From the NCBI GenBank assembly GCA_027459725.1, contig DAIDHK010000001.1, positions 67,411-131,410 of the forward strand: DNA of 64,000 bases, written 5' to 3'. The notes under the pieces were generated by a model, which saw only the letters and a list, made by a program, of their open reading frames with translations, was not told where the DNA came from and did no database searches. The first letter of the stretch is position 1, and each line of letters opens with the position of its first letter. This document shows, piece after piece, positions 8,282 to 54,995 of the stretch. Source of the stretch: Candidatus Levyibacteriota bacterium. Its GTDB lineage: Bacteria; Patescibacteriota; Microgenomatia; Levybacterales; UBA12049. The position numbers and the translations under genes were made by a program.

Positions 8282-9160
8282 ATGCACTCATCTAACTGGA
8301 AACGCCTGGTACTTATTGGATTCATAGTTATTTTATTAGTTGCTATTCCAGTTGCTATCTATCTGGTCAAAACAACCACCAACACACAATCTCATGCTAC
8401 CCCTGCGACTAACTTAACTTTTACACCTCCTTCAAGCAATCCAGCACCTATTACCGCAAATGTAGGAGATACGGTGCCATTAACTTTAAACATCGACCCT
8501 GGAACCAATCTGGTAACGTCAGTAAAGGTATATATTCAATATGATCCCACTAAACTTAGTGCCTCAAGCACAGCCTTCACTGTCAATGATTCAGCTTTTC
8601 CTGTAACCGTTCAGGGCCCTAGTTATTCTCCCGGTTCTATTTCCTTTTCAGTCTCTATTGGTGCAGACTATACCAAGGCTATCCAGTCTCCTACCAGTGT
8701 GGGTACACTGACCTTCACAGCTCTAGCTGCAACTGATCCCAACAATCCTACTCAGGTAAGTGTGACTACTCAATCGCAGGTCTTATCTGCCGGCCCCAAT
8801 GATCAATACCCTGAGAATGTTTTGTTATCACGACCTATTGCCTACATCGCCGTAAATGGACCCGCACAACCATCTACAACACCAACTCTAGTTCCTTCTG
8901 CTACTCTCACTCCTGTTCCCGGTGTTCCAACTGATACACCCGCACCAACGCTGGAGGCTTCACCTAGTGCAAGTCCTATTGCAATTGCTACTCCTACTAC
9001 TGCAGCTGTAGCAGTAATCGCTAATCCGACTGATACACCTGTTCCTCCACTGCCCACAGCGACTATTGCCGCTACAGGTTCTACTAATGTTACATTCGGT
9101 GCAGGTGCTGTATTAACTGTGTTATCTGTTATTGGCGGGGTAATTTTCTTCGTACTGTAG
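8282..9160 (+). CDS. membrane-anchored surface protein with cohesin-like beta domain, Pro/Thr-rich linker and C-terminal hydrophobic anchor
   Basis: N-terminal TM 'LVLIGFIVILLVAIPVAIYLV'. 'ITANVGDTVPLTLNIDPGTNLVTSVKVYIQYDPTKLSASS' resembles the cohesin-domain consensus. P/T-rich segment. C-terminal 'IAATGSTNVTFGAGAVLTVLSVIGGVIFFVL'. Confidence 0.55.
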   Translation: MHSSNWKRLVLIGFIVILLVAIPVAIYLVKTTTNTQSHATPATNLTFTPPSSNPAPITANVGDTVPLTLNIDPGTNLVTSVKVYIQYDPTKLSASSTAFTVNDSAFPVTVQGPSYSPGSISFSVSIGADYTKAIQSPTSVGTLTFTALAATDPNNPTQVSVTTQSQVLSAGPNDQYPENVLLSRPIAYIAVNGPAQPSTTPTLVPSATLTPVPGVPTDTPAPTLEASPSASPIAIATPTTAAVAVIANPTDTPVPPLPTATIAATGSTNVTFGAGAVLTVLSVIGGVIFFVL

Positions 9161-21461: not shown

Positions 21462-21634
21462 GAGGCCATTCTAGGTTTTCCCCTATATTACTTTATAAAT
21501 ATTATTTTTAAGCAAATAAATAAAAAATATCCCACAACTATTAAATTACAAACTATTTTTTAATAAATTTATGCTAGTTACCGGTTATTGAGGTATTCAC
21601 TTACCATCAATATTCTATATACTCCTTACCTGCA

Positions 21635-21643
21635 TGTTATAAT
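21635..21643 (+). promoter_or_regulatory. extended -10 promoter (TGtTATAAT) for alaS; near-leaderless transcript
   Basis: 'catgTGtTATAATacataagtatattATG': TATAAT at 21638-21643 with TG at -15/-14. The ATG at 21657 is only about 7 nt from the predicted TSS, and no SD is visible. Confidence 0.35.
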
Positions 21644-21656
21644 ACATAAGTATATT

Positions 21657-23501
21657 ATGACAGCTGCAGAATTACTCAACAAATATATTAAATTTTTTGA
21701 GGATAGAGGGCATAAAAGAATTGCCGGAGCACCTTTAATTCCGCAAAATGATCCCACCACTCTTTTCACTAGTTCGGGTATGCAGCCCCTCATACCATAT
21801 TTAATGGGTGAAATACATCCGGAAGGAACTAGACTAGTTGATGCACAAAACAGCTTCCGGGCAGTAGATATTGAGGAAATTGGCGACAATCGTCATACTA
21901 CTTTTTTCAGAATGCTGGGTAACTGGAGTCTGGGTGATTACTTTAAAAAAGAAGAAATCCCCTGGCTGTATGAATTCCTGACTAATCAACAAAGTGGTCT
22001 TGGCATTGATCCGACTAAACTGCATTTTACTGTTTTTAAAGGCTTTGAGGACATCCCACAGGATAACGAGGCGTATCAAATCTGGGAAGAAGTATTGCAA
22101 AAAGCTGGAGTAGAAAACTATAAAAATCGCTTACACTGGTATGGAGTAGAGAAAAACTGGTGGTCGCGTGCAGGAACACCCGACAAAATGCCAGCAGGTG
22201 AAATTGGTGGACCGGACACTGAGGTTTTTTATGATTTCGGCGATGAAACAGTTCATAAAAAAAGTCAGTGGGGTAAGCAACCCTGCCATGTGAATTGTGA
22301 CTGCGGTCGCTATTTAGAAATTGCCAATAGTGTTTTCATGCAATATAAAAAAACAGCCGATGGGAAATTCGAGAAGCTTCCCAAACAGAATGTCGACTTT
22401 GGCGGAGGACTAGAAAGACTTCTAGGAGCAGTCGAGGGGCAAATAGATATGTTTCAAACTTCCCTGTTTAAACCTACTATTGACATCATTGAGCGGCAAA
22501 CGGACAAAGACTATCAAACATATAAATCATCTTTCCGAATTATTGCTGATCACCTGGGTGCGAGCTGCTTAATTATCGTAAATGGTATTAAGCCTGCCAA
22601 TAAAGATCAAGGTTATATCCTGCGACGTTTACTAAGAAGAGCTTTTGATAATTTTAATTTATTGGGTGGAAAAGATATATTACCTGTTCTGGAAACGATT
22701 GTTGATCAATATGCAGAAACTGACCCTATTGTTAAAGTACAGTATGAAGAAATTAAAAATACTATTTTAGAAGAAATGCAAAAGTATGAACGAACTAGAC
22801 ACGAAGCAACGAGGTTCATTGAGAAGAAATACCAACAACCTTTACACGATGGAGATACCAGAGAAATTTCTGCTGATGATGCGTTTGTATTATATACCAC
22901 GCATGGTCTCTCACCCACCCAGATTAAAAGCCTGGGTTATTCTTTTGACAACAAAATTTTTGCACATAAAATGGAAGAGCACCAAAAACTCTCCCGTTCC
23001 GGAGCTGAGAAAAAATTCCGTGGAGGACTGGCTGATCATAGCGAAAAAACTATCATGGGTCACACGGCCACTCACTTAATGCACCAAGCCTTGCGCGATG
23101 TACTTGGTAATCAGGTTCATCAATCAGGTTCTAATATCACCAGTGAGAGAATCCGTTTTGATTTTAACTTTGATAGAAAACTCACAGAAGATGAAATTAA
23201 ACATGTCGAAGAGATAGTGAATGGTAAAATAACCGAGAATTTACCGGTACACTTTGAACTCATTCCTACCCAAGAAGCCTACAAAATGGGAGCAATTGGT
23301 CTGTTTATGGAAACATATAGTGAAAAATCCAAAATCTATTTCATTGGTGACATATCTAAAAACTATAAAGACGCTTACTCAATTGAATTTTGCGGAGGGC
23401 CACATGTTGATTTTACAGGAGTCTTAAAATCGTTTAAGATAATAAAGCAGGAGAACCTTGGTGCAAACCTTAAACGTCTCTATGCGATAGTAGGAAAATA
23501 A
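21657..23501 (+). CDS. alaS: alanyl-tRNA synthetase, short form (catalytic + editing domains, no C-Ala domain)
   Basis: 'FFEDRGHKRIAGAPLIPQNDPTTLFTSSGM...FRAVDIEEIGDNRHTTFFRMLGNWSLGDYFK' is the AlaRS catalytic core. The editing domain carries 'HTATHLMHQALRDVLG'. Start taken at the internal 'MTAAELLNKY' (21657). Confidence 0.9.
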   Translation: MTAAELLNKYIKFFEDRGHKRIAGAPLIPQNDPTTLFTSSGMQPLIPYLMGEIHPEGTRLVDAQNSFRAVDIEEIGDNRHTTFFRMLGNWSLGDYFKKEEIPWLYEFLTNQQSGLGIDPTKLHFTVFKGFEDIPQDNEAYQIWEEVLQKAGVENYKNRLHWYGVEKNWWSRAGTPDKMPAGEIGGPDTEVFYDFGDETVHKKSQWGKQPCHVNCDCGRYLEIANSVFMQYKKTADGKFEKLPKQNVDFGGGLERLLGAVEGQIDMFQTSLFKPTIDIIERQTDKDYQTYKSSFRIIADHLGASCLIIVNGIKPANKDQGYILRRLLRRAFDNFNLLGGKDILPVLETIVDQYAETDPIVKVQYEEIKNTILEEMQKYERTRHEATRFIEKKYQQPLHDGDTREISADDAFVLYTTHGLSPTQIKSLGYSFDNKIFAHKMEEHQKLSRSGAEKKFRGGLADHSEKTIMGHTATHLMHQALRDVLGNQVHQSGSNITSERIRFDFNFDRKLTEDEIKHVEEIVNGKITENLPVHFELIPTQEAYKMGAIGLFMETYSEKSKIYFIGDISKNYKDAYSIEFCGGPHVDFTGVLKSFKIIKQENLGANLKRLYAIVGK

Positions 23502-23555: not shown

Positions 23556-25994
23556 ATGAACCTGCCATTTTTTTCAAAGGCAAATAAAAAAACGGAAATA
23601 AGTTATTTTTTAGCCCTTACGTTACGAGATGAACAGATAGGAGCATATGTCCTCAAAGAAGAAGCAGGGAAATTGCACTTAGTAGGCAAGGGTGAAGAAA
23701 TCCTTGACAAATCTATTGAGCAATTAGACTTGAAAAATCAAATTGATATTTTAGACCGCATTATTAGTCAGGCAGAGAGTTCTTTACCCAAAAATGTTAT
23801 GACCCGCAAAACAATGTTTGGGGTCAAAGAAAGTTGGGTCGAAGATAACAAAATAAAAGCTGATTATCTGCATAAGCTCAAACAGATTTGCGATGAACTG
23901 GGCTTACAACCAACTGGGTTTTTAGTAATATCAGAAGCTATTGCGCATCGTTTGCAACAGGAGGAAGGAGCTCCTCTTACTGCCATCCTGGTGGAGATCG
24001 GAAAGAGTCAAATGACCGTTTCACATATTAAAGCAGGTAAGATCCTGGAAACCAAACATACCATAATCATTGAGTCTGCTATTCTGACACTAGATGCTTT
24101 GCTTAAACATTTCATTACCACTACAGTATTACCTACCAGAATCATTTTATTTGACGGTAATAACACTGCTAATTTAACCCAGGAATTTATAGCACATCAA
24201 TGGAGCAAGAGTCTGCCTTTTTTACACATGCCCCAGATTACACCTCTACCTCATGGTTTTGATGCACGCTCGGTTATTCTAGGAGCAGCTGAACAGATGG
24301 GGCTGCAGGTGTCCAGTGATATTAATATGGCTGGATTACCTGAGAAATCAGTTGAATCTAATCCTCCATTCATGGAGAATTTACAACCCGTCACCCCAAT
24401 AATGGACGCTACACCAAATAATCCAGAAGAGCAAGGTGAAGCTGAACCACCAGCTGAAGAATCAACAGAAACAATGGCTCGTGAGTTCGAGAAAAGGTTA
24501 AATGCCAGACTCAGTCCAGACGAGGAAAAAGACCTATCTTCAGTCGATGAAAGTAATGTAACTACTGCCGAAGAGTTTGGTTTTGTCAAAGGAGTCGATA
24601 TTTCAACTTTGCCGCATAAAGAACCACCCATCATGACAGAACATCATAGGCATGAAGAGAATGACATTATTTCGACAGAAGCCATTACAGATTATAGTAG
24701 TGACTACACAAACCATAACTTTAACCAACAGGAAGAACATATAAAACCAAAGCAAAAATTTTCATTGACCAATATGTCTTTCTTATCCGGCAGCATAAAT
24801 AAACTTTTACAGAAATTATTTATGAGTAGCTCTGACTCTCAATCTGATTCTAAAATCCCCCGCTGGATGATTATTGTACCCATTGTCTTACTATTAATAG
24901 TAGCTGGAATTGTATGGTATATTTTTAATGTTAAAGCAACTGTGAATCTTACCTTAAAACCAAAAATAGTTGAAGAACAGGGGAATATTACTTTTGCTCT
25001 CGGCTCTGGCAATGACTTTTCCAATAATACACTTGCGGCTTCGGATGTATCAGTTGACTTAAACGGCACTGCCAGTACGACTGCTACCGGCAGTAAAGCA
25101 GTAGGTTCCCCAGCCAAAGGTACTGTCACCATATATAACAACTCAAATAGTCCGGAGACATTAGCAGCAGGAACAACGATAACTTCCACGAATAATCTTG
25201 TCTTTACATTCGATAATAATGTGACTGTTGCTTCGGCCTCAGGAGATCAGTTTACGGGAACAAAACCAGGTACCGCCGATGTTAACGTAACTGCCAAAGA
25301 TATCGGCCAGCAGTACAATCTTCCTTCCGGCACCGTATTTTCTATTAATGCCGGTAATTCAGTAGCTGCCAAGAATAATAGTGCATTCAGTGGAGGAAGC
25401 AAACAGACAGTCACTGTAGTATCCCAGGCTGATATCAATAAACTGCTTAGCTCTTTACCTCAAAGTCTGCAGAACAAGGCTAAAAGCCAGCTACAAAGTC
25501 AGATATCCAGTGGACAGACACTTCTGCCTGGTATAACCAGTGATAATTTTAAATCCAAATCTTTTAATCACAATATAGGTGACCAGGCCAATTCAGTTAC
25601 GCTAACTGGTACAGTTACTTTCCATGGAGCAGCATATAATAATCAGGATTTACAGAATCTGGCAAAAACCATGTTAAAAGATAAATTTACAGGTAACTCT
25701 TCTTTGTCAGATAAAGGAATTAGTGCTAATATCAGTAACTTGCAACCTTCATCTGACGGCAAAACTATTGGAGCCACAATCGACTTGCAAGCCGGGCTTC
25801 TACCAAACATTGATACATCAAGTCTAATCTCTCAGGTGAGGGGTAAGACTGCCGCTCAGGCTACTCAGGTGTTAGACGGTATACCTCAGATTGAATCAAG
25901 TTCTATCAATCTAAGTCCTAATATACCTCTGATCCCGAAAATTTTACCGCGTTTTTCCAACCACATCACAATCAAGATCAACAGTAATGGCTAA
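23556..25994 (+). CDS. bitopic membrane protein: N-terminal cytoplasmic FtsA/PilM-like actin-fold domain, acidic linker, single TM, large Ser/Thr/Asn-rich extracellular domain
   Basis: The N-terminal ~260 aa align by eye to FtsA ('ISYFLALTLRDEQIGAYVLKEEAGKLHLVGKGEE' vs 'VVGLEIGTAKVAALVGEV...'; 'LTAILVEIGKSQMTVSHIKAGKI' vs 'VCVVDIGGGTMDIAVYTGG'). TM 'WMIIVPIVLLLIVAGIVWYIF' near residue 430; the ~370 aa after it are low-complexity, beta-rich ectodomain. Confidence 0.5.
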   Translation: MNLPFFSKANKKTEISYFLALTLRDEQIGAYVLKEEAGKLHLVGKGEEILDKSIEQLDLKNQIDILDRIISQAESSLPKNVMTRKTMFGVKESWVEDNKIKADYLHKLKQICDELGLQPTGFLVISEAIAHRLQQEEGAPLTAILVEIGKSQMTVSHIKAGKILETKHTIIIESAILTLDALLKHFITTTVLPTRIILFDGNNTANLTQEFIAHQWSKSLPFLHMPQITPLPHGFDARSVILGAAEQMGLQVSSDINMAGLPEKSVESNPPFMENLQPVTPIMDATPNNPEEQGEAEPPAEESTETMAREFEKRLNARLSPDEEKDLSSVDESNVTTAEEFGFVKGVDISTLPHKEPPIMTEHHRHEENDIISTEAITDYSSDYTNHNFNQQEEHIKPKQKFSLTNMSFLSGSINKLLQKLFMSSSDSQSDSKIPRWMIIVPIVLLLIVAGIVWYIFNVKATVNLTLKPKIVEEQGNITFALGSGNDFSNNTLAASDVSVDLNGTASTTATGSKAVGSPAKGTVTIYNNSNSPETLAAGTTITSTNNLVFTFDNNVTVASASGDQFTGTKPGTADVNVTAKDIGQQYNLPSGTVFSINAGNSVAAKNNSAFSGGSKQTVTVVSQADINKLLSSLPQSLQNKAKSQLQSQISSGQTLLPGITSDNFKSKSFNHNIGDQANSVTLTGTVTFHGAAYNNQDLQNLAKTMLKDKFTGNSSLSDKGISANISNLQPSSDGKTIGATIDLQAGLLPNIDTSSLISQVRGKTAAQATQVLDGIPQIESSSINLSPNIPLIPKILPRFSNHITIKINSNG

Positions 25995-26739
25995 TAAATA
26001 TTACTACCATAAAAGAGATATTCAAAAGATCAGGGAAATTGTTCGTTATATCGGCTTAACGATATTTCTGATTGGAATTTTTGGTCTGTTGTATGTCTTT
26101 TTCCCTTTAGTTTCGTGGCAGGTCTACCTGGTTCCCCAGTTAGCTGCACAAGACGTTGTTTCACCTATTCCTGACCAATCAGTGTTATCCTCCTCTTCAG
26201 TAGGTTCTCTGATACAGGATTCTATCAAAGATATCGGAGTAAATTATTCCAATGCAAACAACTGGTTTCCCGGTTATACTCCTGAGTCATCTAATAAATC
26301 ATCCTCAATTCATATTTTCTATCTCTCAATTCCCACCCTCGGGATTTATCACGCTACTGTAAGCAACGCTGATAATGATTTAGATCACCACCTGGTAAAT
26401 TTCGCCGGCACTGCTTCTCCTCCTGAAAAAGGTAATACGGTTATTTTTGGACACTCTACTCTACCACAATGGTTTGATCCTCATAATTACAAAGCAATTT
26501 TTGCAACTGCCTTAAACTTAAAAGTGGGTGATAAAATTATTGCTACGGTTAACGGAGCAGATTATACTTACGTAATAGATAATATCAGCATTGTGAATGC
26601 CGATGACTATACCCCTCTGGAGCAGCAGTATAATGATAGCTATATGACGATTATTACCTGTACGCCTCCAGGTACAACCTGGAAACGTCTGGTGATACAT
26701 TCCCGTCTTGCAAAACTCACGGGTAGTTCTCTACAATAG
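25987..26739 (+). CDS. sortase (class A/E-like transpeptidase), N-terminal membrane anchor
   Basis: Catalytic triad context: His in 'TVIFGHSTL', Cys in the TLxTC-like 'MTIITCTPPG', and Arg in 'KRLVIHSRL'. N-terminal TM 'IGLTIFLIGIFGLLYVFF'. Start overlaps the upstream gene by 8 nt. Confidence 0.8.
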   Translation: MANKYYYHKRDIQKIREIVRYIGLTIFLIGIFGLLYVFFPLVSWQVYLVPQLAAQDVVSPIPDQSVLSSSSVGSLIQDSIKDIGVNYSNANNWFPGYTPESSNKSSSIHIFYLSIPTLGIYHATVSNADNDLDHHLVNFAGTASPPEKGNTVIFGHSTLPQWFDPHNYKAIFATALNLKVGDKIIATVNGADYTYVIDNISIVNADDYTPLEQQYNDSYMTIITCTPPGTTWKRLVIHSRLAKLTGSSLQ

Positions 26740-27009: not shown

Positions 27010-28293
27010 TTGTATATGGATGAAAAAGAATTGGCTCTAGAGGCTATCAGAAAAAAGTTAGTCGGCAAAAAACTCACCTATAAAGAGATTTATGCGGTTA
27101 TGGATGAAATTTCACATAAACGCTTTAGTACTGTTCTGACTACTTACTTTACCGCATCGGGATATTCCAATGGATTTACCGATGAGGAAATTTTTTATCT
27201 GACTAAAGCTATGGTCGATACTGGTGAACAGTTGCACTTCAAAGGTATTGTTGCTGATAAACATTCCATTGGTGGTATTTCAGGTACCAGAACAACTATG
27301 ATTGTAGTACCTATTCTGGCCGCTGCAGGATTTACTATTCCTAAAAGCTCCAGCCGCGCTATAACAACTCCTGGAGGAACGGCTGATGACATGGAAGTTA
27401 TTGCACCGGTAATCTTTAATAAAGAACAAATCTATAAAATTGTGGAGAAAACCAATGGGTGTATAGTCTGGGGCGGCAGTGTTAATATTGCTCCAGCTGA
27501 TGACATTATTATCAAAGTAGAAGAACCATTAATGTTTGAAAGTTTCGATAAAATCCTGGTATCGATCATGGCGAAAAAAGTCGCGTTTGGTTCTAATCAT
27601 GTAGTGATAGACCTTCCTTACGGCAAACTGGTTAAGGTTCACTCATTGTCCGACGCAAACCTTCTGAAAAAAAAGTTTGAGACCCTTGCAGGCAAATTTA
27701 ACATTAAGATTAAAGTGATTGTGAGCGAGACTGACCAGCCGGCCGGCAGAGGTATCGGACCTTTACTTGAAGCCCGAGAGGCACTTAGAGTCCTCGAACA
27801 GCATAAAGACAGACCACTTGACTTGGAGGAAAGAGCTTTGATATTGGCTGGTAATTTACTCGATATATGTCTGGAAGACAGTAATCAGGAGCTCAGGGAA
27901 AAAGTAAAAGCTGAATTTGAAAATGGATATAACTGGGCTAAAAATTTATTATCCACACGTAAGGCGAGAAAAAAAATGGAGGAAATTATTAAAGCCCAGG
28001 GAGGAAATCAAGATTTGGTAAGTGAAGACTTAAAACCTGGGAAATATGTACACGAGATACTTTCACCTCATAAAGGTAAAATAGCTGAATTCCAAATTAT
28101 TAACAGTACTGTACTGGCCAAACTACTGGGAGCTCCCCACAGAAAAAGAGCAGGTATTTACCTACAGAAAAAGCTAGGTGAAAATGTTGATAAACATGAT
28201 ATATTATGTACACTATATAGTGATAGTCAAACAGATATGCATGAAGCAATAGAAACTTTAAATAACATGCCCTTGTACACGATAGATCATTAG
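27010..28293 (+). CDS. pyrimidine-nucleoside (thymidine/AMP) phosphorylase family protein
   Basis: 'DKHSIGGISGTRTTMIVVPILAAAGF...ITTPGGTADDME' matches the thymidine phosphorylase glycosyl-transferase family-3 core ('DKHSTGGVGD...GHTGGTLDKLE'). Confidence 0.8.
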   Translation: MYMDEKELALEAIRKKLVGKKLTYKEIYAVMDEISHKRFSTVLTTYFTASGYSNGFTDEEIFYLTKAMVDTGEQLHFKGIVADKHSIGGISGTRTTMIVVPILAAAGFTIPKSSSRAITTPGGTADDMEVIAPVIFNKEQIYKIVEKTNGCIVWGGSVNIAPADDIIIKVEEPLMFESFDKILVSIMAKKVAFGSNHVVIDLPYGKLVKVHSLSDANLLKKKFETLAGKFNIKIKVIVSETDQPAGRGIGPLLEAREALRVLEQHKDRPLDLEERALILAGNLLDICLEDSNQELREKVKAEFENGYNWAKNLLSTRKARKKMEEIIKAQGGNQDLVSEDLKPGKYVHEILSPHKGKIAEFQIINSTVLAKLLGAPHRKRAGIYLQKKLGENVDKHDILCTLYSDSQTDMHEAIETLNNMPLYTIDH

Positions 28294-29969: not shown

Positions 29970-30356
29970 CTATTTTTTTGTGGCTTTTCTGAAGAACTTA
30001 TGACCTGAGGGCAAATGACGAACTGGATGGGTAACTTTCTCAACTGGAGTTTTTTCTTCAACAGCAGCCTTATCCGGCATTTCACTTTCCAACGGCTCGT
30101 CCATATCTTCTTCGGGATCTACTATTTCCCCATCTTCTTCCATGGCCCGAATAATATCCTCTACTTCATTAAATTTATTCATTCCTTCTTCTGTTAGAGT
30201 CTGCAAAATCTGCCTGCCTTTTTTGGTAGTAAACAAAAGTGTGATTAAAACTCCTACAACTAGACCAAGGACAAAACCGTTCAACGAAGAACCTGATCTG
30301 ATTTGTTGCACGGGAGGATATTCATTATTCTTCATGGTGTTTGTCTTTATGTTCAT
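29970..30356 (-). CDS. YtxH-like membrane-anchored protein
   Basis: 'LNGFVLGLVVGVLITLLFTTKKGRQILQTL' is the YtxH/DUF948-type motif, followed by an acidic tail. Possible true start at the internal Met. Confidence 0.4.
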   Translation of the reverse strand: MNIKTNTMKNNEYPPVQQIRSGSSLNGFVLGLVVGVLITLLFTTKKGRQILQTLTEEGMNKFNEVEDIIRAMEEDGEIVDPEEDMDEPLESEMPDKAAVEEKTPVEKVTHPVRHLPSGHKFFRKATKK

Positions 30357-30621
30357 CTCTTTTCAAAAAAGTCTTAATAATTTTTGCCACAGCCATAAAT
30401 GATCCTGAACTAACCAGCCCGCTTATACCGCCCAAAGAAGATAAGGGTTTAGAAACAGCATCTGCAATTGTATCGGCAGTGTCTAAGACTTTATTAGCTT
30501 TGAAAAGTGTATGTCTAACCTCTCGAAGAATAAAGAAGACCTGAACTCCTAATACAACGAGCAATAGAGTTAAAACTATAATTACAAACAGAAGAACAAG
30601 CTGGACAGAGTCTATGTTCAT
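30325..30621 (-). CDS. DUF948-like small membrane protein
   Basis: Single N-terminal TM plus a helical domain; commonly paired with YtxH-like proteins. Confidence 0.4.
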   Translation of the reverse strand: MNIDSVQLVLLFVIIVLTLLLVVLGVQVFFILREVRHTLFKANKVLDTADTIADAVSKPLSSLGGISGLVSSGSFMAVAKIIKTFLKRDEHKDKHHEE

Positions 30622-30702: not shown

Positions 30703-31329
30703 CTACCTGACTTCCACGGTACGATTGACGATAGTAGTTTTTCCATAATGATTCTGCGCAGTAATTTCAATCTGAGTAGCACCTGGCAGTAACGATAAAT
30801 CTTTGAAAAAATTTCCATTCTGATCCACTGTCACCATTTCCCCATTTACCATTACTAAATCGCTGGGATCTGTTGTCCCTTTAACTTCAATATTATCAGG
30901 AACGATCGCGTTGTTTGTCGGACTGCTCACCTGCAAAGGGGGACTAAGAAAAACAGACCTGTATTGAAATATTAAATAACTTAATAAAAATAATGAGATC
31001 ACTATTAAAACTATACTTGAGCGCTGGATGCGTAAAGTTTTATGTTTATACTTCTCTCCTGCAAAACTATCAGGGAGAACTTTAGTAGATTTTTTCGGAT
31101 CGAATTCACGATGAAACAAGGCTAATGCCTCACGTCGGGGAATACCCAGATAAGATGCATAATTGGTCACAAACCCCTGTGCGTAAGTGGCAGATGGTAA
31201 TTTTGCGTATTCATCCTGTTCAATAGCGGAAAGAAAAGCCGGACGGATTTTGGTGGCAGACGATACATCCTCCAGAGATAAACCTTTCCTTCTTCTCTCT
31301 TCTGATAATAATTGTCCTAAATGCACCAT
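30703..31329 (-). CDS. rodZ: RodZ-like cytoskeleton protein (XRE HTH + TM + C-terminal beta domain)
   Basis: 'LGQLLSEERRRKGLSLEDVSSATKIRPAFLSAIEQDEY' HTH; central TM 'IVLIVISLFLLSYLIF'; C-terminal DUF4115-like domain. Confidence 0.6.
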   Translation of the reverse strand: MVHLGQLLSEERRRKGLSLEDVSSATKIRPAFLSAIEQDEYAKLPSATYAQGFVTNYASYLGIPRREALALFHREFDPKKSTKVLPDSFAGEKYKHKTLRIQRSSIVLIVISLFLLSYLIFQYRSVFLSPPLQVSSPTNNAIVPDNIEVKGTTDPSDLVMVNGEMVTVDQNGNFFKDLSLLPGATQIEITAQNHYGKTTIVNRTVEVR

Positions 31330-33718: not shown

Positions 33719-34426
33719 TTGGGTGTAAAATCATATAATATGATTGAGAAAGTTAAAACACTGTCAAATAGAATAACTCACAAAATCAGACGTATGCGTC
33801 TGCAAAAAATGCATATAGATTATATAGCTGGTCTATTAACAATCCCAGTTTTATTGACAGCTATTATGATCAATTTTGGTAATCTAAATAAAAACACCAA
33901 AACTACAACCACTACGGAAACTCCAAGTCCGCAAGTTATTATAGTCACGACAGCTCCTAATAATAACAACGCTGATGTCAGCCAAAATCAAACAGCTCTG
34001 CCAACACCCACGCCTGTCTGTCAAAAAAATATAGGTCCCATCAGTATTACCTCACCGACCGAAGGACAAACGGTCAGTGATAACCCTGTATGTATACAAA
34101 TCAATTATTCAGATAGTAATTACTGCTCTGTGGTATGGTCATACCGCATAAATGGAGGTTCATGGTCTGATTTTAATAATAACTCTCCCTGTCTGTATAA
34201 CCTATCTAACGGTAACATTCAATTCCAGTTGAGAGTTAATAGTACAGTATCAAGTGATAGTACAACTCTGACTAGAAATTTCGTTTATGACGGTGCTAAC
34301 AATCCCGTTATTACTCCAACACCAACTCCTTTACCGACGTCTACACCAACTCCTACAAACACACCAACACCGACTCCTTCACCAACTATAACAATTACAC
34401 CTACTGTCCCTGTTCCGACTAAGTAA
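33719..34426 (+). CDS. membrane-anchored surface protein with Cys-containing beta domain and Pro/Thr-rich C-terminus
   Basis: TM 'IAGLLTIPVLLTAIMINF'; four Cys; C-terminal '(TP)n' repeats 'TPTPTPLPTSTPTPTNTPTPTPSPT'. Confidence 0.45.
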   Translation: MGVKSYNMIEKVKTLSNRITHKIRRMRLQKMHIDYIAGLLTIPVLLTAIMINFGNLNKNTKTTTTTETPSPQVIIVTTAPNNNNADVSQNQTALPTPTPVCQKNIGPISITSPTEGQTVSDNPVCIQINYSDSNYCSVVWSYRINGGSWSDFNNNSPCLYNLSNGNIQFQLRVNSTVSSDSTTLTRNFVYDGANNPVITPTPTPLPTSTPTPTNTPTPTPSPTITITPTVPVPTK

Positions 34427-44961: not shown

Positions 44962-46323
44962 TTGATTAAACTAAGGAAAGTGAAATCTATTTTAATCCTG
45001 TTAATCGTGTTGATAGTAGCCGCAGCTGTTTCGTTAAGCGGAGGATTTAGTTCATTTTTACAAAGCGGCAATCAGGCCAGTCTTACCAGCGCAATTACCA
45101 TTACAGGAACTTCAACCGGATCAAACAGTTCGACAACTCTTAATGATACTTCCAAAAGCTTTACTCCAGGATCATTGGTAGGAGATACTATTACTATCAA
45201 TTCCGGTACCGGTGCTGGGCAGTCAGCAACTATTACTTCCAATACTAACAACCAAGTTACGATTGACAAACCCTGGACTACTACACCAGACACCTCTTCT
45301 AATTATACAATCACACCACCCGGAACAGGGGGATCAGCCAGCAGCGGCGGAATAGTTGTTGTTCCACCCCCCAATCAGAACGGCAAACAGTTACAGTTAA
45401 ATACCTTTGAGATGATTACTTTAACACCAACCTCAGCACCTACGCCAGCAACTGCTTGCGTATCTACAGATGGACCCAGAAACTCCAATTGTTCGTGTAC
45501 TACCCCGAGCGTCATCGCTGTTACCTGCAATGTTGGTAATACTAACCCTTCTGTTTTTAATGGGATTGGAGTTAATGAAACTTGCCCAGATGGAGGTGTT
45601 CCATGTGCGGATGTAAAACCAAAATATTATGCAGGTATAAGTTGCACTCCAACAAGCTGCGTATACCTTAAAAATACCTTAGTCATTCCTGGAGGTAGTA
45701 CGTTACCAGCAAGCCCAAGTTATTCAAAATATGAGAATTGTACAGGTGTGGCAAATGTTTGTTTTGATAAACCAGTCATTTACTTATATTCTGATCATGT
45801 CATAAATCATGTTTCTGTAAAACTAAATATTCCAGGAATTATTACTAAAAGTATTCCATCATACCCCGAAACTGGATGGAATAATATAACAGTTATACCT
45901 GGAGGTATAATAAATTATGATAATAAGATCTATAATGAATTATTCTATGAAACTAGCGTAAAAAAAACTCCTCAGTTAACCACAGGTTACGTATATTCTA
46001 CTAAAAATTTGCCAATCGAGTTAAATAATTTAACAACTAGACTAGGATTAAAACAATCAGAAAAGGAAGAATTTCTGAATTATTGGATGCCAAAGTTATA
46101 TGCATTAAATAAACCATATATATACGTTGGGATTCTTTTTGCAAAAGAAAAAGAACAAGTAGATAATGTTATTATCTCTCCAGAACCTGATACGACTATC
46201 TCTTTCTTGACCATATTTAAAGGATTAAGTACAGAAATCTTAGTCAAACAACCCACTCTTCCTAATATCCCCACAAGAAAAGGATTTGTCATGGTTGAAT
46301 GGGGAGGCGCAATAGAAAACTAA
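44962..46323 (+). CDS. secreted/membrane-anchored protein with Ser/Thr-rich region, Cys-rich central domain and conserved C-terminal domain
   Basis: Signal anchor 'ILILLIVLIVAAAVSL'; about 14 Cys between residues 165-260; no recognisable catalytic motif. Confidence 0.45.
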   Translation: MIKLRKVKSILILLIVLIVAAAVSLSGGFSSFLQSGNQASLTSAITITGTSTGSNSSTTLNDTSKSFTPGSLVGDTITINSGTGAGQSATITSNTNNQVTIDKPWTTTPDTSSNYTITPPGTGGSASSGGIVVVPPPNQNGKQLQLNTFEMITLTPTSAPTPATACVSTDGPRNSNCSCTTPSVIAVTCNVGNTNPSVFNGIGVNETCPDGGVPCADVKPKYYAGISCTPTSCVYLKNTLVIPGGSTLPASPSYSKYENCTGVANVCFDKPVIYLYSDHVINHVSVKLNIPGIITKSIPSYPETGWNNITVIPGGIINYDNKIYNELFYETSVKKTPQLTTGYVYSTKNLPIELNNLTTRLGLKQSEKEEFLNYWMPKLYALNKPYIYVGILFAKEKEQVDNVIISPEPDTTISFLTIFKGLSTEILVKQPTLPNIPTRKGFVMVEWGGAIEN

Positions 46324-46986: not shown

Positions 46987-49392
46987 TCACTTTGTTAAAA
47001 CAATCTGTCCACTGGCATCGACATTTAAAACGATCTTATCTCCCCTTTTAATCTGATCCTGAAGTTTTGCTTTTGCCAATAAGTCTTCTATATTATCCTG
47101 AATATACCTTCTCATCGGACGAGCTCCAAATTCAACGTCAGCACCTTCTTTAACAATTTTATCTATAACAACCTCGCTAAATGATAGACCAATATCCTGC
47201 TGTGCCATTTGACCAATAATGTCATTTAAAATTAACTGCACAATTTGCTTTAATTCCACAGGACCAAGTGGAGTAAAGGTAATAACATCATCAAAACGGT
47301 TTAGTAGTTCAGGACGGAAAATCTGATTTTGCTGCAGATATTCTAACAGCTTTTGCTGAAACACTTTATCTATTTTCTGTCCTGACACAACATTTTCACG
47401 AACAAATTCTGCTCCTGCATTTGAGGTGGCAATAATAATACTGTTCACAAAAGTAACCGTATGGCCTTTATTATCTGTCAAACGTCCATCTTCTAATACC
47501 TGCAAAAACAAATCAAGAATTTTAGGATGAGCTTTCTCAAATTCATCCAGCAAAACTAAAGAAAACGGATGATCATGAATTTTATCAGTCAGTTCGCCTC
47601 TTTCATTCCCCTCTCCGGGGGCTGAACCAAGTAGTCTTCTCTCTCCATCAATATCGGAGTACTCAGACATGTCCAGACGAATCATATTCTGTTCGCCGCC
47701 AAAATATACCGAAGCTAAGGCTTTAGCTGTTTCTGATTTGCCGACTCCAGTTGGCCCTAAGAAAAGGAAAGAAATGGGTCTATTCTGTGTAGTTAGGCCT
47801 GAGCGTAAACGCCTAAGTGCCTCAGCAATGGCCGAGATAGCCTGCGTCTGATCAATAACCTTTTCATGAATTTTATCTTCCAAATGCAATAATAATTCTT
47901 TTTCCTCTTTGGTAGGAGCACCTACATTAACCTGAGTTTTTAAACTGATTTGTGCCTCGATGTCACTGGCTAATACTACTTTTTGTCTTGACTTACCCAG
48001 ATAATGAGATTGTGAAGAAATTGCCACACTATTAGCCGCATCGTTGAGTAAGTTAACAGCACTACCTGGCAGCACCGCATCCTGCTCGTAACGGTCAGCC
48101 AGGTTAATAGCAGTCAGTACTGCATGATAAGTCATTATCACACCATTTTTATTTTCTATATCATCTGTTTTGGCAATTAGCATTTGCGTCGCAATATCTT
48201 TACTGGGTTCAAGAATATTGATTAAGGTAAACACTTCATGGAGTGGATTCTGCTGCATGTAAGTTTTGTAATTACCGGGTGACATACTGGCAATTACCGG
48301 CAGAAAGCCAGACTGTAAATAGGGCAACAGAGCGCCGGACAAATCTATAGCATAAGAACTTGCTCCCATCAAATTTTCAAAATCAGGAATATACAAAATT
48401 ACATTTCTGGCATGTGAGACTTCGGCTACGATCGATTCTAAACGAAGCTCTAAGTCACTACGGTCTTGCGCTCCGGCAATAAGCGGACCCACCATAAGCT
48501 GTAAAATCTTCTTATGATTAAGAAAGCCTGAAAGATGAGAGTAATAACTATCATTGGCCAACTCAGCCACCAGATTTTCTTTCCCTACACCATCTTCGCC
48601 CACCAGTAACACATTATTGTTTTCCCTTTTGCTCAGTGCTTCTAAAAGCGCTCTATATTGATCTTCTCTTCCTATTAAAAACGGTTCTATATCACGATAA
48701 CTAAAGTCCTGTGTATAATTTTTAGTCTCCGGGGTCCAACCATTTACAATCCCTTCGCCTATTCCTTCACCGGTAAAATTCATTCTAATTGGTCTGGGGA
48801 ACTCTTCGTTTTTAAATTTATAACGAGCCCATAATAATATTTGAAGTAGTTCCTCCTGTTTAATTTCATGATTGAAAAGTGTTTTGGTCTGATCTTCGCT
48901 CAAGAGCAAATAAGCAACCAGAGCGTCCATAGTAGTAATATAACTTCCGCCTATTTTCTCTACAATTTCTGCCGCTTTAGCAATAATTTGATCTGTGGGG
49001 ATATCTAGAACTTTAATATCCTCAACTGGTATCGCTGATTTTTCTAATACAAAAGACACGGTGGGAGTTTTTAATAATTTGTAAATAAATTTTTGCAATG
49101 TAATTGCAGAAAACAAAATTTGTAATAAATCTTTACTGCTAGACAGTGTCCATTTACCTTTATCATTTCTATTTACAGGTAGATAAGGATGAGATAAGTA
49201 GACATGAAAACGAAAAAATATTTCACAGATCAGAAACCATACAAAAACAAATAACGGCAAGCTAACTGGAAGTTTATGATTTAACTGGTTGAGAAAAAGT
49301 AAAATCACAAATACAAAGACTAATGTTCTGACAGACCGCAATAGCGCAGATGTATATATAATCTTTAATTTAACTAAACCTTCAATATTCAT
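46987..49392 (-). CDS. membrane-anchored Clp/Hsp100-family AAA+ ATPase with degenerate D1 and intact D2; no ClpP-docking loop
   Basis: Two N-terminal TM helices ('TLVFVFVILLFLNQL', 'LPLFVFVWFLICEIFF'), then a Clp_N-like repeat. D1 Walker A 'GEDGVGKEN' (canonical GEPGVGKT) and Walker B 'ILYIPDFEN' (canonical ILFIDELH) have lost catalytic residues. D2 is intact: 'FLGPTGVGKSETAKALA', '[29 protein letters not shown]', 'ATSN', 'GARPMRR'. No [ILV]G[FL] loop and no M-domain. Confidence 0.8.
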   Translation of the reverse strand: MNIEGLVKLKIIYTSALLRSVRTLVFVFVILLFLNQLNHKLPVSLPLFVFVWFLICEIFFRFHVYLSHPYLPVNRNDKGKWTLSSSKDLLQILFSAITLQKFIYKLLKTPTVSFVLEKSAIPVEDIKVLDIPTDQIIAKAAEIVEKIGGSYITTMDALVAYLLLSEDQTKTLFNHEIKQEELLQILLWARYKFKNEEFPRPIRMNFTGEGIGEGIVNGWTPETKNYTQDFSYRDIEPFLIGREDQYRALLEALSKRENNNVLLVGEDGVGKENLVAELANDSYYSHLSGFLNHKKILQLMVGPLIAGAQDRSDLELRLESIVAEVSHARNVILYIPDFENLMGASSYAIDLSGALLPYLQSGFLPVIASMSPGNYKTYMQQNPLHEVFTLINILEPSKDIATQMLIAKTDDIENKNGVIMTYHAVLTAINLADRYEQDAVLPGSAVNLLNDAANSVAISSQSHYLGKSRQKVVLASDIEAQISLKTQVNVGAPTKEEKELLLHLEDKIHEKVIDQTQAISAIAEALRRLRSGLTTQNRPISFLFLGPTGVGKSETAKALASVYFGGEQNMIRLDMSEYSDIDGERRLLGSAPGEGNERGELTDKIHDHPFSLVLLDEFEKAHPKILDLFLQVLEDGRLTDNKGHTVTFVNSIIIATSNAGAEFVRENVVSGQKIDKVFQQKLLEYLQQNQIFRPELLNRFDDVITFTPLGPVELKQIVQLILNDIIGQMAQQDIGLSFSEVVIDKIVKEGADVEFGARPMRRYIQDNIEDLLAKAKLQDQIKRGDKIVLNVDASGQIVLTK

Positions 49393-49721
49393 AGCTTAAT
49401 GAAAAATAAAAGAAATGAAAAAACTGGTAACAGGACAAAAACGCATATAAACATAAATTCAGCGCACAATAAAACCAACAACAGCAACAAGGAAATTAAA
49501 ATAAGAGCTGTCTTCACAAAAATCCCCATGCCGATAGAAAATCCTACCAGACCCTGCCTGTATTCATTTTTAATAGGTTGAAAAAAAGTTCTTAACAATA
49601 ACCCGACAGAAAACATACGTAAGAAGGAGGAATTAAGTGAAGAAAAATACGACAACAGTCCAAGCGGAGCATTTACATACCAGAATTTCAAAAACTCAAC
49701 CGGCAACAGTGAATATTGCAT
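49389..49721 (-). CDS. small polytopic membrane protein
   Basis: 110 aa, three predicted hydrophobic segments. Its stop overlaps the TM-Clp start (translational coupling). Fills the gap downstream of the M4 protease. Confidence 0.4.
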   Translation of the reverse strand: MQYSLLPVEFLKFWYVNAPLGLLSYFSSLNSSFLRMFSVGLLLRTFFQPIKNEYRQGLVGFSIGMGIFVKTALILISLLLLLVLLCAEFMFICVFVLLPVFSFLLFFIKL

Positions 49722-49781
49722 ACTAGTCTAGCATAGAAAGTTTAGTTCAAAAAAGCAAACCAGCTCAAGCCAAAGATACTT

Positions 49782-51863
49782 CTACTGACATGCAAAAGTA
49801 CACAACTGCAATCCCCCTGCTCCATGTGAACATTTACTGACGACCTTACATCCCGGCAAAGCCATGTTTGCCTGATTTAATAAACCAGACGGGACCTTCC
49901 ACTCAATCAAATAGTTGCCAGTTTGTGAGATAGTTGTTGAATAAGGTCCAATGGTTATGCCATCGGGTAATTGAGCTGTCAGCTGCAATTGTCCAAAACT
50001 AAAATCAGAAAAATCAACCGCTCCAGTGAGACTCGTAACACCTGTAAACTGCTGACCGCCAGAACTTAAAGTCAAGTTTACATTCGATATACCCTCATTA
50101 CCATCATAATATCCGTTGCCATTAAGATCGTTATAGACGATAACATGTAAAGATAAATCCGCTGAGGGAGTACCTGTAAGACTAACTGTACCATTTGGAC
50201 TCACAGTTGGAGATGGTGAGACTCCTTTTGTCGACAGAGGCTGACTGCTGCATGCAGGAGCAACTTCAGTTCTATTTAAACATACAGCTCCCTGCTGTGT
50301 ATTAACCGGTTGCTGATCCATCTCAGTAGCCTGTAAAGCTTTTTCAACATTAACACAAGTATTAGAGTACCCTCCATATAAATCATTACAGGCTAACAGC
50401 ATGTCAATATACATATCGGAAAAATTTGCTGAAGGAATTAAATAATGAGTTAGCGCCCGATATTGAATCTGATAACTGGCACTGCCTATACCATCAATCT
50501 GACAGCCGTTAAAACTTCCTCCCTCAGTCATCAAATAAAAAGCTTTATTCATCACACCCTCGTTGGAATGAACTCCTCCACTGTCTTGAGTATCACAGAT
50601 ATACAACGGAGAAAAAAGTTTATCCGGCTGACCAGTAAGTGTAGGATCATTCAGATATCTAAAAGGTGTTTTAACTCCCGCAATATGAACATCCGCTCCT
50701 ATTGACCAGTTATGATCAATGCCGGTAGCAAAAATATCTGAATTGCTTTCATTTAATGCTCCTGACTGATAGCTATAAATTAATCCTGCAGTGTAATGAG
50801 TTACCGCATGCGTTAATTCATGTGTGACGATGTCCAAAACATCCATACCGGCACATAATTCAATCCCACCGTCTACATAAGCTGAATTAGGACAGGGGAA
50901 TCCCGCAATATCAGCTCTGTTCACATAACCAAAAAGGGTTGCACCTTTATTATCTATACTGTCGCGGTTAAAATTGTTTAGATAAAACTGGTATACCTGC
51001 CCGAAAATATCATAAAGTTTATTGACGTCAGTGTTCATGGAGGGGGGCTGACCCTCTGTACGACTCACTACGCAATTATCAGAGTTGTTACAGTTGCTGA
51101 TGTTGCGGGCTAAAAGTGTTTCTACCTGATTTTCCTGGTAAACAATTTTTCCACTGGTTAAGTCAATAAAATAACGTGTAGCAAAATCCGGTGGTTTGTT
51201 CGATGTAGTTATTAAAACAGCTAAAACATGATAGGTAGTGCCATTATTGCTCAGGCCTAAAGCCTGCAGATTTAATAAGTACTCATTATCATTAGCAACC
51301 TTTAAATTTAAATGAGGATTATCCTTTCTTGCCTGGTTTAAGGCAATCATTTCAGCTTTCTCCCGGTTGATTTGGGTACTCAAAGTAGCAGGTTGCTTAG
51401 TAACCACTACCCCCGAAGCAGCATATATCTCGTCCACATGCTGAATGTGAACCGCGATAATCCCATCATAAACAGGTATATTATCTATGGTTTGCTGATA
51501 AAAATAATGTTCGGTGCCTGGTAGATAGTAGGTAGGACTTTGCTGGTCAACCAAGCTTCTCTGTAAAACAACCTTGGAATAACTATTTAAACCATTCCCA
51601 AAAATCCCGTTAGGATTTGCGCTAATAAAATCTAATGCTGCTGCCTCCCCCTGCTGATTTGATTTATATAAATAACCATTTTCAGTGTACAAGGAAAAAG
51701 CATTATCATTGCTATGTGTAACAGTATAAGAATCTTTGCCTAATATCTGAGGACTGATCCTAATCTGACTGACAAAATATGTTATTAAAGTAACTAATAT
51801 AAGTAATACGAAAGCTTCGACTAACCAGTATCTTCTCAAATACTTTAAAACCTTTTCTCTCAT
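49782..51863 (-). CDS. secreted M4 (thermolysin-like) zinc metalloprotease with N-terminal signal anchor/propeptide and C-terminal beta-rich extension
   Basis: '[33 protein letters not shown]' = HEXXH plus the downstream Glu ligand. '[17 protein letters not shown]' and '[16 protein letters not shown]' are collinear with thermolysin ('[34 protein letters not shown]...GGVHINSGIINKAAYLI'). Confidence 0.85.
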   Translation of the reverse strand: [693 protein letters not shown]

Positions 51864-51923
51864 ATTCTTATCATACAGGATTCTAGATTAGAGATAAAAT
51901 TAATGTCAAACCACCGTGATATT

Positions 51924-54900: not shown

Positions 54901-54995
54901 TGTGTAACAGGAGAATTCACCTCCGATTGAGCAGAAGGATTAGAATCATTATTTTTTGCACTAAATAAATTTCCTAGCATATATCTATTGTTCAA
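51924..54995 (-). CDS. Clp/Hsp100-family AAA+ ATPase, ClpA-like architecture (Clp_N-D1-D2), without M-domain or ClpP-docking loop, with ~230-aa disordered Ser/Pro/Thr/Gln-rich C-terminal tail
   Basis: D1 '[18 protein letters not shown]' and '[12 protein letters not shown]'. D2 '[17 protein letters not shown]', '[29 protein letters not shown]', 'GARPLRR'. The D1-D2 linker is short. The sequence after sensor-1 ('[19 protein letters not shown]...') has no IGF/VGF tripeptide. Confidence 0.85.

Follow-up and report, generated by a model that had tools for sequence, protein, structure and literature searches.

The locus and its gene pair

We analysed a 64-kb window (the whole stretch considered here, 64,000 nucleotides of contig DAIDHK010000001.1 from a Candidatus Levyibacteriota bacterium), in which a gene for an 812-aa membrane protein, hereafter X, is directly followed by a gene for a 250-aa sortase. 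Both open reading frames (ORFs) lie on the plus strand (X, 23556-25994; sortase, 25987-26739) and overlap by 8 nt, with the letters ATGGCTAA. Such a pair was present in all Levybacteria genomes examined, and its features taken together suggest an undescribed machine that organises the cell surface. An earlier reading of the stretch, made from the letters alone (the sequence-only reading), had proposed that the two genes are translationally coupled through the overlap, which is borne out.

23556-25994, plus strand: gene X, a bitopic membrane protein with an ASKHA (actin-like) domain, an acidic linker, a transmembrane (TM) helix and a baseplate-J-like ectodomain (ORF, homologues, AlphaFold2 model)
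25987-25994, plus strand: 8-nt overlap containing the stop codon of X and the start codon of the sortase, ATGGCTAA (translational coupling; -8 nt in 49 of 80 loci)
25987-26739, plus strand: sortase gene, 250 aa, with an N-terminal TM anchor (Pfam Sortase, E 6.8e-19; TIGR01076)

More than 400 full-length homologues of X were found, at about 40% identity. Both genes are real and subject to selection. In a scan of GTDB species representatives, at least 399 stretches encoded a relative of X; the best 80 of these were examined for synteny, and all displayed that of the Levybacteria locus. An exhaustive profile search with the N-terminal domain alone returned 1,404 representative clusters, of which 604 reach E<=1e-30 and 1,212 reach E<=1e-10. 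The top 150 were mostly proteins of 700-820 aa with the domain at their N-terminus, the shorter entries looking like fragments, and the approximately 800 weaker matches (E between 1e-30 and 1e-3) may represent either fragments or remoter relatives. A divergent tier of X proteins (~720-750 aa) also belongs to Levybacteria and shows the same arrangement. Among the matches listed, including those of a re-search from the most divergent listed member, no relative of X outside Levybacteria was seen.

Joint conservation of the two genes had been set beforehand as one of the points on which the proposal should stand or fall. We found the sortase directly 3' of X in all 81 loci with downstream DNA, as well as in two further divergent loci. 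Where the junction was measured, the two genes overlapped by exactly 8 nt in 49 of 80 loci and stood at -4, -1 or 0 nt in 12 more, so that 61 of the 80 overlap or abut; the remaining pairs were mostly no more than 24 nt apart. This overlap has been kept despite the divergence of the proteins (identity of about 40% for X and 50% for the sortase). The conserved overlapping stop and start codons point to X being made in fixed proportion with the sortase.

The whole block (rpoB/alaS-X-srt-AMPpase-yceG/...rodZ-ftsK) is however syntenic across the phylum, and the adjacency of X and the sortase may therefore reflect inherited gene order. For this reason, we consider adjacency alone weak evidence of a partnership, and the conserved overlap stronger evidence. 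One might then argue that no functional link exists, X being a domesticated phage-derived surface protein whose gene order and overlap are kept by phylogenetic inertia in a compact genome. The synteny of the entire block would fit such a view, as would the frequency of short overlaps in genomes that are small and densely packed with genes. So would a mirror-tree comparison of 51 species, where the partial correlation of X with the sortase (r 0.34) was not specific when set against that of X with the AMP-phosphorylase (r 0.48). On the other hand, inertia sits poorly with an identical 8-nt overlap in 49 of 80 species at 40-50% protein identity, while the other junctions of the same block have spacers of 54-270 nt and took occasional insertions (in loci L039 and L085, and between rpoB and alaS). 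We regard the absence of any link as very unlikely.

Many GTDB records of metagenome-assembled genomes carrying the Levybacteria-type locus (L006, L010-L015, L022, L024 and others) are titled as other lineages, namely "uncultured Gammaproteobacteria", "Methylomirabilota", "Limnocylindrales", "Lysobacterales" or "Saccharimonadales". These titles are unreliable for taxonomy.

X carries a minimal actin-like domain

23556-23591, plus strand: conserved, flexible N-terminal peptide M-K/N-L-P...K-K, aa 1-12 (column counts; predicted local distance difference test, pLDDT, ~50)
23592-24320, plus strand: minimal ASKHA domain, aa 13-255, cytoplasmic and probably not an ATPase (AlphaFold2, Foldseek, motif loss)

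The AlphaFold2 model of X, built on an alignment of 95 sequences, has a mean pLDDT of 81.6 and shows two confident regions with disorder between them. The first is preceded by a short peptide that is strongly conserved (M1 in 95/95, L3 in 93/95, P4 in 90/95 and K11 in 87/95 sequences). Residues ~10-255 reach a pLDDT above 90 in the full model, and the domain modelled by itself gives a pLDDT of 91.3 and a predicted template modelling score of 0.86. Its predicted topology, beta-beta-beta-alpha-beta-alpha-beta-alpha occurring twice, corresponds to two RNase-H-like lobes, the arrangement by which the ASKHA fold is recognised. When the domain-only model was compared with the PDB by Foldseek, the top 50 matches were all ASKHA proteins, with E-values down to 8e-10; a search with the full model likewise placed ASKHA proteins alone at its top. 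PilM ranked first (5eou_A, E 9e-10, TM-score 0.60; also 2ych), and further neighbours included PPX/GppA, EutJ (TM-score 0.58, root-mean-square deviation 4.7), FtsA (7q6i, 1e4f, 4a2a), MreB and the nucleotide-binding domain of DnaK. The identity to these structural matches was 8-16%, and in the model the domain appears roughly equally distant from several ASKHA families.

These findings bear out the actin fold that the sequence-only reading had assigned to the N-terminal domain. Its more specific label, "FtsA/PilM-like", holds at the level of fold and fails at that of sequence. Pfam and NCBIfam searches with X left the N-domain without a match, and Pfam searches with 31 family N-domains at E<=10 returned none of the FtsA, PilM, GspL and MreB models. 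Searches of the PDB with phmmer and with the family profile left the domain unmatched too, and hhalign against single E. coli sequences gave probabilities of 0.6% for FtsA, 0.5% for GspL and 0.8% for HofM. The domain is thus recognised neither by Pfam nor by hhalign and is placed by fold comparison only. These ~250 aa are currently without a Pfam family.

The domain had also been described as shortened, and the model agrees. Its total length is ~245 aa and the loops at the insertion points of subdomains 1C and 2B are predicted to be ~9-11 residues long, too short to hold either, so both subdomains are absent. The segment "VEIGKSQMT", correctly singled out as the phosphate-2 region, belongs to the second lobe, where it forms part of the first hairpin. 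The nucleotide-binding motifs themselves, examined in columns of 95 X sequences, have largely lost their glycines. The phosphate-1 strand and hairpin read L19-A-L-L-L-R-D-E-K with no Gly (canonical DxGxxxxK), the phosphate-2 hairpin keeps [ED]147-I-G149 with K-x-x in place of GGT (canonical DxGGGT), and the GG of the adenosine site is replaced by F-[DN]-[GSA]. Judged by these motifs, the N-domain is most likely a pseudo-ATPase, and the loss of the Gly-rich loops makes peptide binding or self-assembly likelier than ATP hydrolysis. The best-conserved motifs in its surface loops are EEGAP (136-140) and HQWSKSLPFLHxPQ (214-227).

Given this fold, X may be thought to act as a scaffold of division or elongation, tethering a filament of FtsZ, MreB or FtsA to the wall in the manner of FtsA or RodZ, with the sortase merely co-expressed. 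Like FtsA, X combines an actin fold with membrane attachment, both FtsA and MreB are among its structural neighbours, and its "EIGK" hairpin pairs with the "DIGGGT" of FtsA, albeit in a non-significant hhalign alignment. The conserved neighbours of X include MltG/YceG, a RodZ-like bitopic protein with an HTH_25 domain, and FtsK, while MurJ is encoded in the window. FtsA uses 1C and 2B for partner and FtsZ binding, however, and both 1C (SHS2) and 2B are missing from X. Moreover, no Pfam match to MreB, to FtsA (PF14450) or to SHS2_FTSA (PF02491) was obtained in the 31 members. Instead of the C-terminal amphipathic helix of FtsA, X has a TM helix followed by a 350-aa ectodomain. Its gene adjoins alaS and the sortase rather than ftsZ and ftsQ and lies outside any dcw or mre cluster, and its tightest and best-conserved link is with the sortase, not with mltG, rodZ or ftsK. 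A role of this kind appears unlikely.

An acidic tether leads to a single membrane helix

24336-24767, plus strand: acidic, intrinsically disordered cytoplasmic linker, aa 261-404 (pLDDT <50, composition)
24570-24605, plus strand: invariant short linear motif EEFGFVKGVDIS within the disordered linker (column conservation)
24768-24821, plus strand: predicted helix before the membrane, aa 405-422 (AlphaFold2 secondary structure)
24861-24929, plus strand: single TM helix, aa 436-458 (hydropathy scan, AlphaFold2 helix, sequence)

The actin-like domain is followed by a linker with a net charge of -20 over ~145 aa; across the family this segment spans 68-154 aa, with a charge between -6 and -33 (median -17). 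Outside of one motif, its mean column conservation is only 22%. The motif, with the consensus [DE]-[ND]-F-G-F-V-x-x-x-D-[IV], is nearly invariant (F341 92/95, G342 95/95, F343 95/95, D348 90/95), and the presence of an invariant F-G-F in an otherwise unconserved linker makes it a candidate interaction motif. Lys and Arg residues on the N-terminal side of the TM helix indicate that the N-terminus lies inside the cell. The acidic linker, the single TM helix and the cytoplasmic orientation of the N-domain were all anticipated in the sequence-only reading.

The partner is a probably active sortase with a candidate substrate nearby

26323-26709, plus strand: catalytic domain, aa 113-241 (Pfam match; triad invariant in 40 sequences)
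26452-26454, 26659-26661 and 26686-26688, plus strand: triad codons for His156, Cys225 and Arg234, respectively (alignment of 40 homologues)
25987-26043, plus strand: basic aromatic cytoplasmic tail M-x-K-Y-Y-Y-K-K...R (alignment of 40 homologues)
26044-26121, plus strand: TM anchor (~20-45) and start of the juxtamembrane segment FFPLxSWQ (hydropathy scan, alignment)

The second gene of the pair matches TIGR01076 with 57.6 bits against a cut-off of 39.35. All the NCBIfam models of sortase classes remained under their cut-offs (class C, 59 of 160 bits; D, 45.6 of 165; E, 38.6 of 160; F, 21.7 of 166). The closest solved structures are class C and D sortases, and one homologue carries the NCBI name "class E sortase". 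Because the His/Cys/Arg triad is invariant in 40 homologues, the sortase is probably active. The existence of this triad had rightly been proposed before. Its catalytic Arg is R234 in the context WKRL rather than the Arg of "HSR", and Cys225 lies in TCTPPGT. The cytoplasmic tail is conserved as well (K4 32/40, Y5 30/40, Y6 32/40, Y7 37/40, K9 36/40, R20 40/40), with a net charge of +4 to +10.

Overall, aa 1-108 of the sortase (25987-26310) contain ~100 conserved residues outside the Pfam domain, comprising the KYYYKK tail, the TM helix and the segment FFPLxSWQIYFAP..PIP...NWF. To our knowledge, neither the KYYYKK tail nor the juxtamembrane segment is a feature of the characterised sortase classes.

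One further gene of the window bears on what this sortase may act upon.

8282-9160, plus strand: cohesin-domain surface protein (Pfam Cohesin, E 8e-8) whose C-terminal part has IAATG (9065-9079) and, after it, a hydrophobic tail

This protein starts with a TM helix or signal anchor and continues with a P/T-rich linker; its tail reads ...TIAATG-STNVTFG before the hydrophobic stretch. Its "IAATG" had already been pointed out as the nearest candidate sorting signal, and the comparison with relatives strengthens the case. A metagenome scan for relatives of the cohesin protein gave one locus (L087, 388-1239, 54% identity), whose product carries LAQTGSTNVTFG and a hydrophobic tail at the equivalent position (...TLAQTG-STNVTFG), the preceding P/T-rich linker having diverged. 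It is plausible, from these tails, that the sorting signal is [IL]AxTG and that the cohesin-domain protein is a candidate substrate of the sortase. Housekeeping class E sortases recognise signals of the LAxTG type. Neither the window nor the 87 loci contained another ORF with a C-terminus resembling a sorting signal.

The sorting signal of the cohesin protein is atypical in lacking the basic residues that normally close such a tail. X was itself considered as a canonical sortase substrate and dropped, its conserved C-terminus (LSPNIPFLP..LPR) being folded into the ectodomain and a hydrophobic tail being absent.

Like the housekeeping class E-type sortases, the partner of X has the sortase fold, the triad, an N-terminal anchor and a candidate [IL]AxTG substrate. 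Unlike them, it scores below every class cut-off, has the KYYYKK tail and a long juxtamembrane segment, and is coupled to X.

The ectodomain of X is related to phage baseplate-J proteins

24930-25991, plus strand: extracellular baseplate-J/gp47-like module, aa 459-812, S/T/N-rich (Foldseek against BFVD and PDB; pLDDT ~90)
25104-25400, plus strand: core barrel with the Pfam Baseplate_J signature, aa 517-615 (Pfam, PHROG, PDB profile)

The second confident region of the model is the ~350-aa ectodomain, which, as stated in the sequence-only reading, follows a single TM helix and is rich in Ser, Thr and Asn (13%, 11% and 10.5%, respectively). That reading had left it unclassified. We find that it is homologous to the baseplate-J/gp47 wedge proteins of phages and tailocins. 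The Pfam family PF04865 (Baseplate_J) matches aa 517-615 of X with 24.0 bits, above its gathering cut-off of 21.1, and the PHROG 6 family, "baseplate wedge subunit", matches the ectodomain with an E-value of 2.9e-8. A search of the PDB with the family profile retrieved the diffocin protein TRI-2/CD1371 (8v3w_E, E 1.9e-4), with which X has the motifs A..iG.eYNLP and N..FsGG in common. Furthermore, Foldseek against BFVD aligned 320-460 columns of the ectodomain with phage baseplate-J or wedge proteins (E 2e-7 to 1e-5), and against the PDB it matched 7kh1 and 8v3w. The barrel is the best-conserved part of the ectodomain (0.71 over 95 sequences) and contains the motifs KAKGTVTIYN, IGxEYNLPS and AFSGG.

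X thus resembles the baseplate J/gp47/gp6-like wedge proteins, such as diffocin TRI-2 (CD1371) and that of phage XM1, in passing the PF04865 cut-off and in its signature motifs. It differs from them in being TM-anchored and fused to a cytoplasmic actin-fold domain, and in lying at a housekeeping locus that has no tail genes and whose neighbours are unchanged across more than 80 species. The superposition is also poor, with low global TM-scores (~0.2) indicating that the domains are differently arranged. The Pfam match is precomputed on about half of the X homologues, and NCBI names some of them "baseplate J/gp47 family protein". Such public labels, and "hypothetical" for others, wrongly hint at a prophage.

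A prophage or tailocin remnant was considered as an identity of the locus and dropped, since the locus is one of conserved housekeeping genes and other tail genes are absent.

With such a domain outside the cell, the ectodomain could be the functional end of X, serving as a host-cell receptor or adhesin or as a membrane-anchored acceptor for [IL]AxTG proteins, with the actin-fold domain relaying signals or anchoring it. In phages, proteins of the baseplate-J type assemble into rings and bear the fibres that bind receptors, and the homology of X to them covers the full length of the ectodomain. Among the five syntenic proteins compared, X also has the fastest evolution, which surface exposure would lead one to expect, and its barrel has four near-invariant lysines (K514, K521, K616, K617). 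Against these points, we found neither an acceptor motif of the pilin type nor a nearby gene for a fibre or receptor-binding protein, and we know of no sortase that uses a baseplate-like acceptor. We regard this reading as speculative and quite unlikely.

X shares the plan of GspL and PilM-PilN but not their kinship

Pilus and secretion machines include proteins in which an atypical actin-like domain, devoid of canonical nucleotide binding, lies in the cytoplasm and is joined by a single TM helix to a domain outside it. They act as scaffolds, connecting a partner in the cytoplasm with a machine of the envelope. GspL is a bitopic protein whose cytoplasmic atypical actin-like domain binds the ATPase GspE and is followed by a TM helix and a periplasmic domain (PMC6233222), and PilO2 is described as a bitopic actin-fold platform protein (PMC3984277). 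By prediction, X has the same topology as GspL/EpsL, BfpC and PilO2. Unlike GspL, it has an acidic disordered tether of ~145 aa and a baseplate-J-like rather than ferredoxin-like outer domain, its partner gene is a sortase and not GspE or GspM, and it shows no kinship in sequence (0.5% hhalign probability, no Pfam match). No operon of a type II secretion system or type IV pilus (T4P), and no gsp gene, is present in the window or the loci.

As for PilM, a protein of the T4P alignment complex, it is the nearest structure to the N-domain of X, and the sortase is organised like PilN: a short conserved N-terminal peptide in the cytoplasm precedes a TM helix, beyond which lies the outer domain. Nevertheless, X differs from PilM in its low identity (10-12%), in the absence of the PilM subdomain insertions and ATP motifs and of any PilM_2 Pfam match, in being membrane-anchored, and in having no pil genes in the window or the loci. 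In related Microgenomates, the canonical PilM lies within a separate T4P locus (PMC7143001).

From these likenesses, X could be an assembly platform for a pilus or secretion system, either a fused PilM-PilN or an analogue of GspL, BfpC or PilO2, whose ectodomain is the base of a filament possibly polymerised by the sortase. PilM being the top structural match, the bitopic plan of GspL and PilO2, and the pilus-type class C sortases among the solved structures closest to the partner would all be compatible with this. However, no pilin, PilB/C/T, GspE/F or pilin-like LPXTG gene was found in the window and 87 loci; the 64-kb window likewise yielded no genes for a type IV pilus, type II secretion or a phage tail. 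In addition to the separate location of canonical PilM mentioned above, the baseplate-J-like ectodomain is at odds with the ferredoxin-like fold of PilN and GspL, and the 59 bits of the sortase are far from the class C cut-off of 160. We give this possibility very little weight.

A proposed scaffold for the sortase

We tentatively favour, with somewhat less than an even chance, the reading that X is a non-enzymatic, envelope-spanning scaffold, specific to Levybacteria, that positions or regulates the sortase in the style of GspL and PilM-PilN. X and the sortase would form one membrane complex, in which the TM helices, together with the basic KYYYKK cytoplasmic tail of the sortase, allow X to hold or regulate this enzyme. 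Since the basic tail would face both an acidic tether and a PilM-like domain, a specific contact comes to mind: the tail might bind the actin-fold domain or the tether, much as PilM clamps the N-terminus of PilN. Outside, the baseplate-like ectodomain would sit beside the catalytic domain of the sortase. As an outcome, [IL]AxTG surface proteins, such as the cohesin protein at 8282-9160, could be attached to the wall at defined sites, in coordination with the neighbouring envelope genes (MltG, the RodZ-like protein and FtsK). The sequence-only reading had put forward, as an inference, a scaffold linking the cytoskeleton to surface-protein anchoring, or a divisome-like module.

Several observations weigh against a sortase scaffold of this kind. 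The contact between X and the sortase is one that we infer, no partner for the cytoplasmic domain of X emerged, and X has no sorting signal. The [IL]AxTG motif is based on two sequences only. Acidic residues of the nucleotide site persist (D25/E26, and E147, which is E or D in 94/95 sequences), so residual binding of nucleotide or metal is possible. As the relatives seen are all from Levybacteria, the co-occurrence of X and the sortase is judged within one lineage, in which the block-wide synteny and the unspecific mirror-tree signal discussed above also have to be reckoned with.

A more elaborate version can be envisaged, in which the actin-fold domain or tether clamps the KYYYKK tail, the ectodomain, as a descendant of a phage baseplate wedge protein, oligomerises into a ring-like platform outside the cell, and [IL]AxTG proteins are attached on or beside this platform, possibly to X and not to peptidoglycan. 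We consider such a sortase-organising machine improbable. If true, it would represent a fixed attachment organelle derived from a domesticated phage part in ultra-small, presumably episymbiotic cells.

In literature searches, we did not find a description of the X family, of an X-sortase pairing or of an actin-fold partner of a sortase. The component folds are all known; new are their combination, the use of a baseplate-J module in a cellular, membrane-anchored protein, and its constant coupling with a sortase. Sortases occur almost universally in Microgenomates (PMC6744442), and throughout an entire candidate phylum the X-sortase pair is fixed. It is through their surface that these wall-poor, ultra-small bacteria are believed to depend on host cells, and the pair offers a testable candidate for organising that surface. 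In addition, X would clearly exemplify the recruitment of a baseplate protein of contractile tails into a protein of the cell envelope. It extends the plan of cytoplasmic actin fold, TM helix and outer domain, known from GspL and PilM-PilN, to a setting other than pili and secretion. The functional role proposed for X concerns a family apparently restricted to one uncultured lineage.

Neighbouring genes and other features of the window

The window is AT-rich (GC ~39%) and encodes housekeeping and envelope proteins typical of Patescibacteria (the candidate phyla radiation), including MurJ, GroEL, LepA, RpoB/C, a short AlaS, an AMP-phosphorylase-like protein, YceG/MltG and YtxH, as well as a RodZ-like protein, FtsK, RNase J, PNPase, IF2, NusA, ClpB and DnaK/DnaJ. 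No Rfam element was found in the window, and no convincing plus-strand terminator between alaS, X and the sortase gene. A reading of the locus as a defence system was dropped, PADLOC having returned no match.

In all loci, the X-sortase pair is bordered by AlaS and by the AMP-phosphorylase-family gene. AlaS (21588-23501, plus strand, 637 aa) is short, with the catalytic and editing SAD domains and without the long C-terminal extension, and the gene after the sortase (27010-28293, plus strand) belongs to the thymidine/AMP-phosphorylase family. The RodZ-like bitopic protein (30703-31329, minus strand), which consists of HTH_25, a TM helix and a Glucodextran_B-like beta-sandwich, adjoins FtsK, and most Levybacteria loci preserve the synteny of its gene with the X-sortase block. 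Between it and yceG lie two genes for small membrane proteins (29970-30356, YtxH-like, and 30325-30621).

GC skew is negative in nearly all 2-kb bins of the window, with a cumulative value of -3.4; an unusual strand composition disparity is reported for a Microgenomates genome in the title of PMC7143001. Four ORFs have no Pfam family: 55025-57925 (minus strand, 966 aa), for which there is a sub-threshold PDS5-like match only, 44962-46323 (plus strand, 453 aa), 59214-60797 (plus strand, 527 aa) and 33719-34426 (plus strand, 235 aa). Finally, on the minus strand at 46987-54995, two ClpB-like AAA+ genes (801 and 1023 aa) stand on either side of a thermolysin-like M4 peptidase (49782-51863), which contains an FTP propeptide motif and an SdrD-B-like domain.

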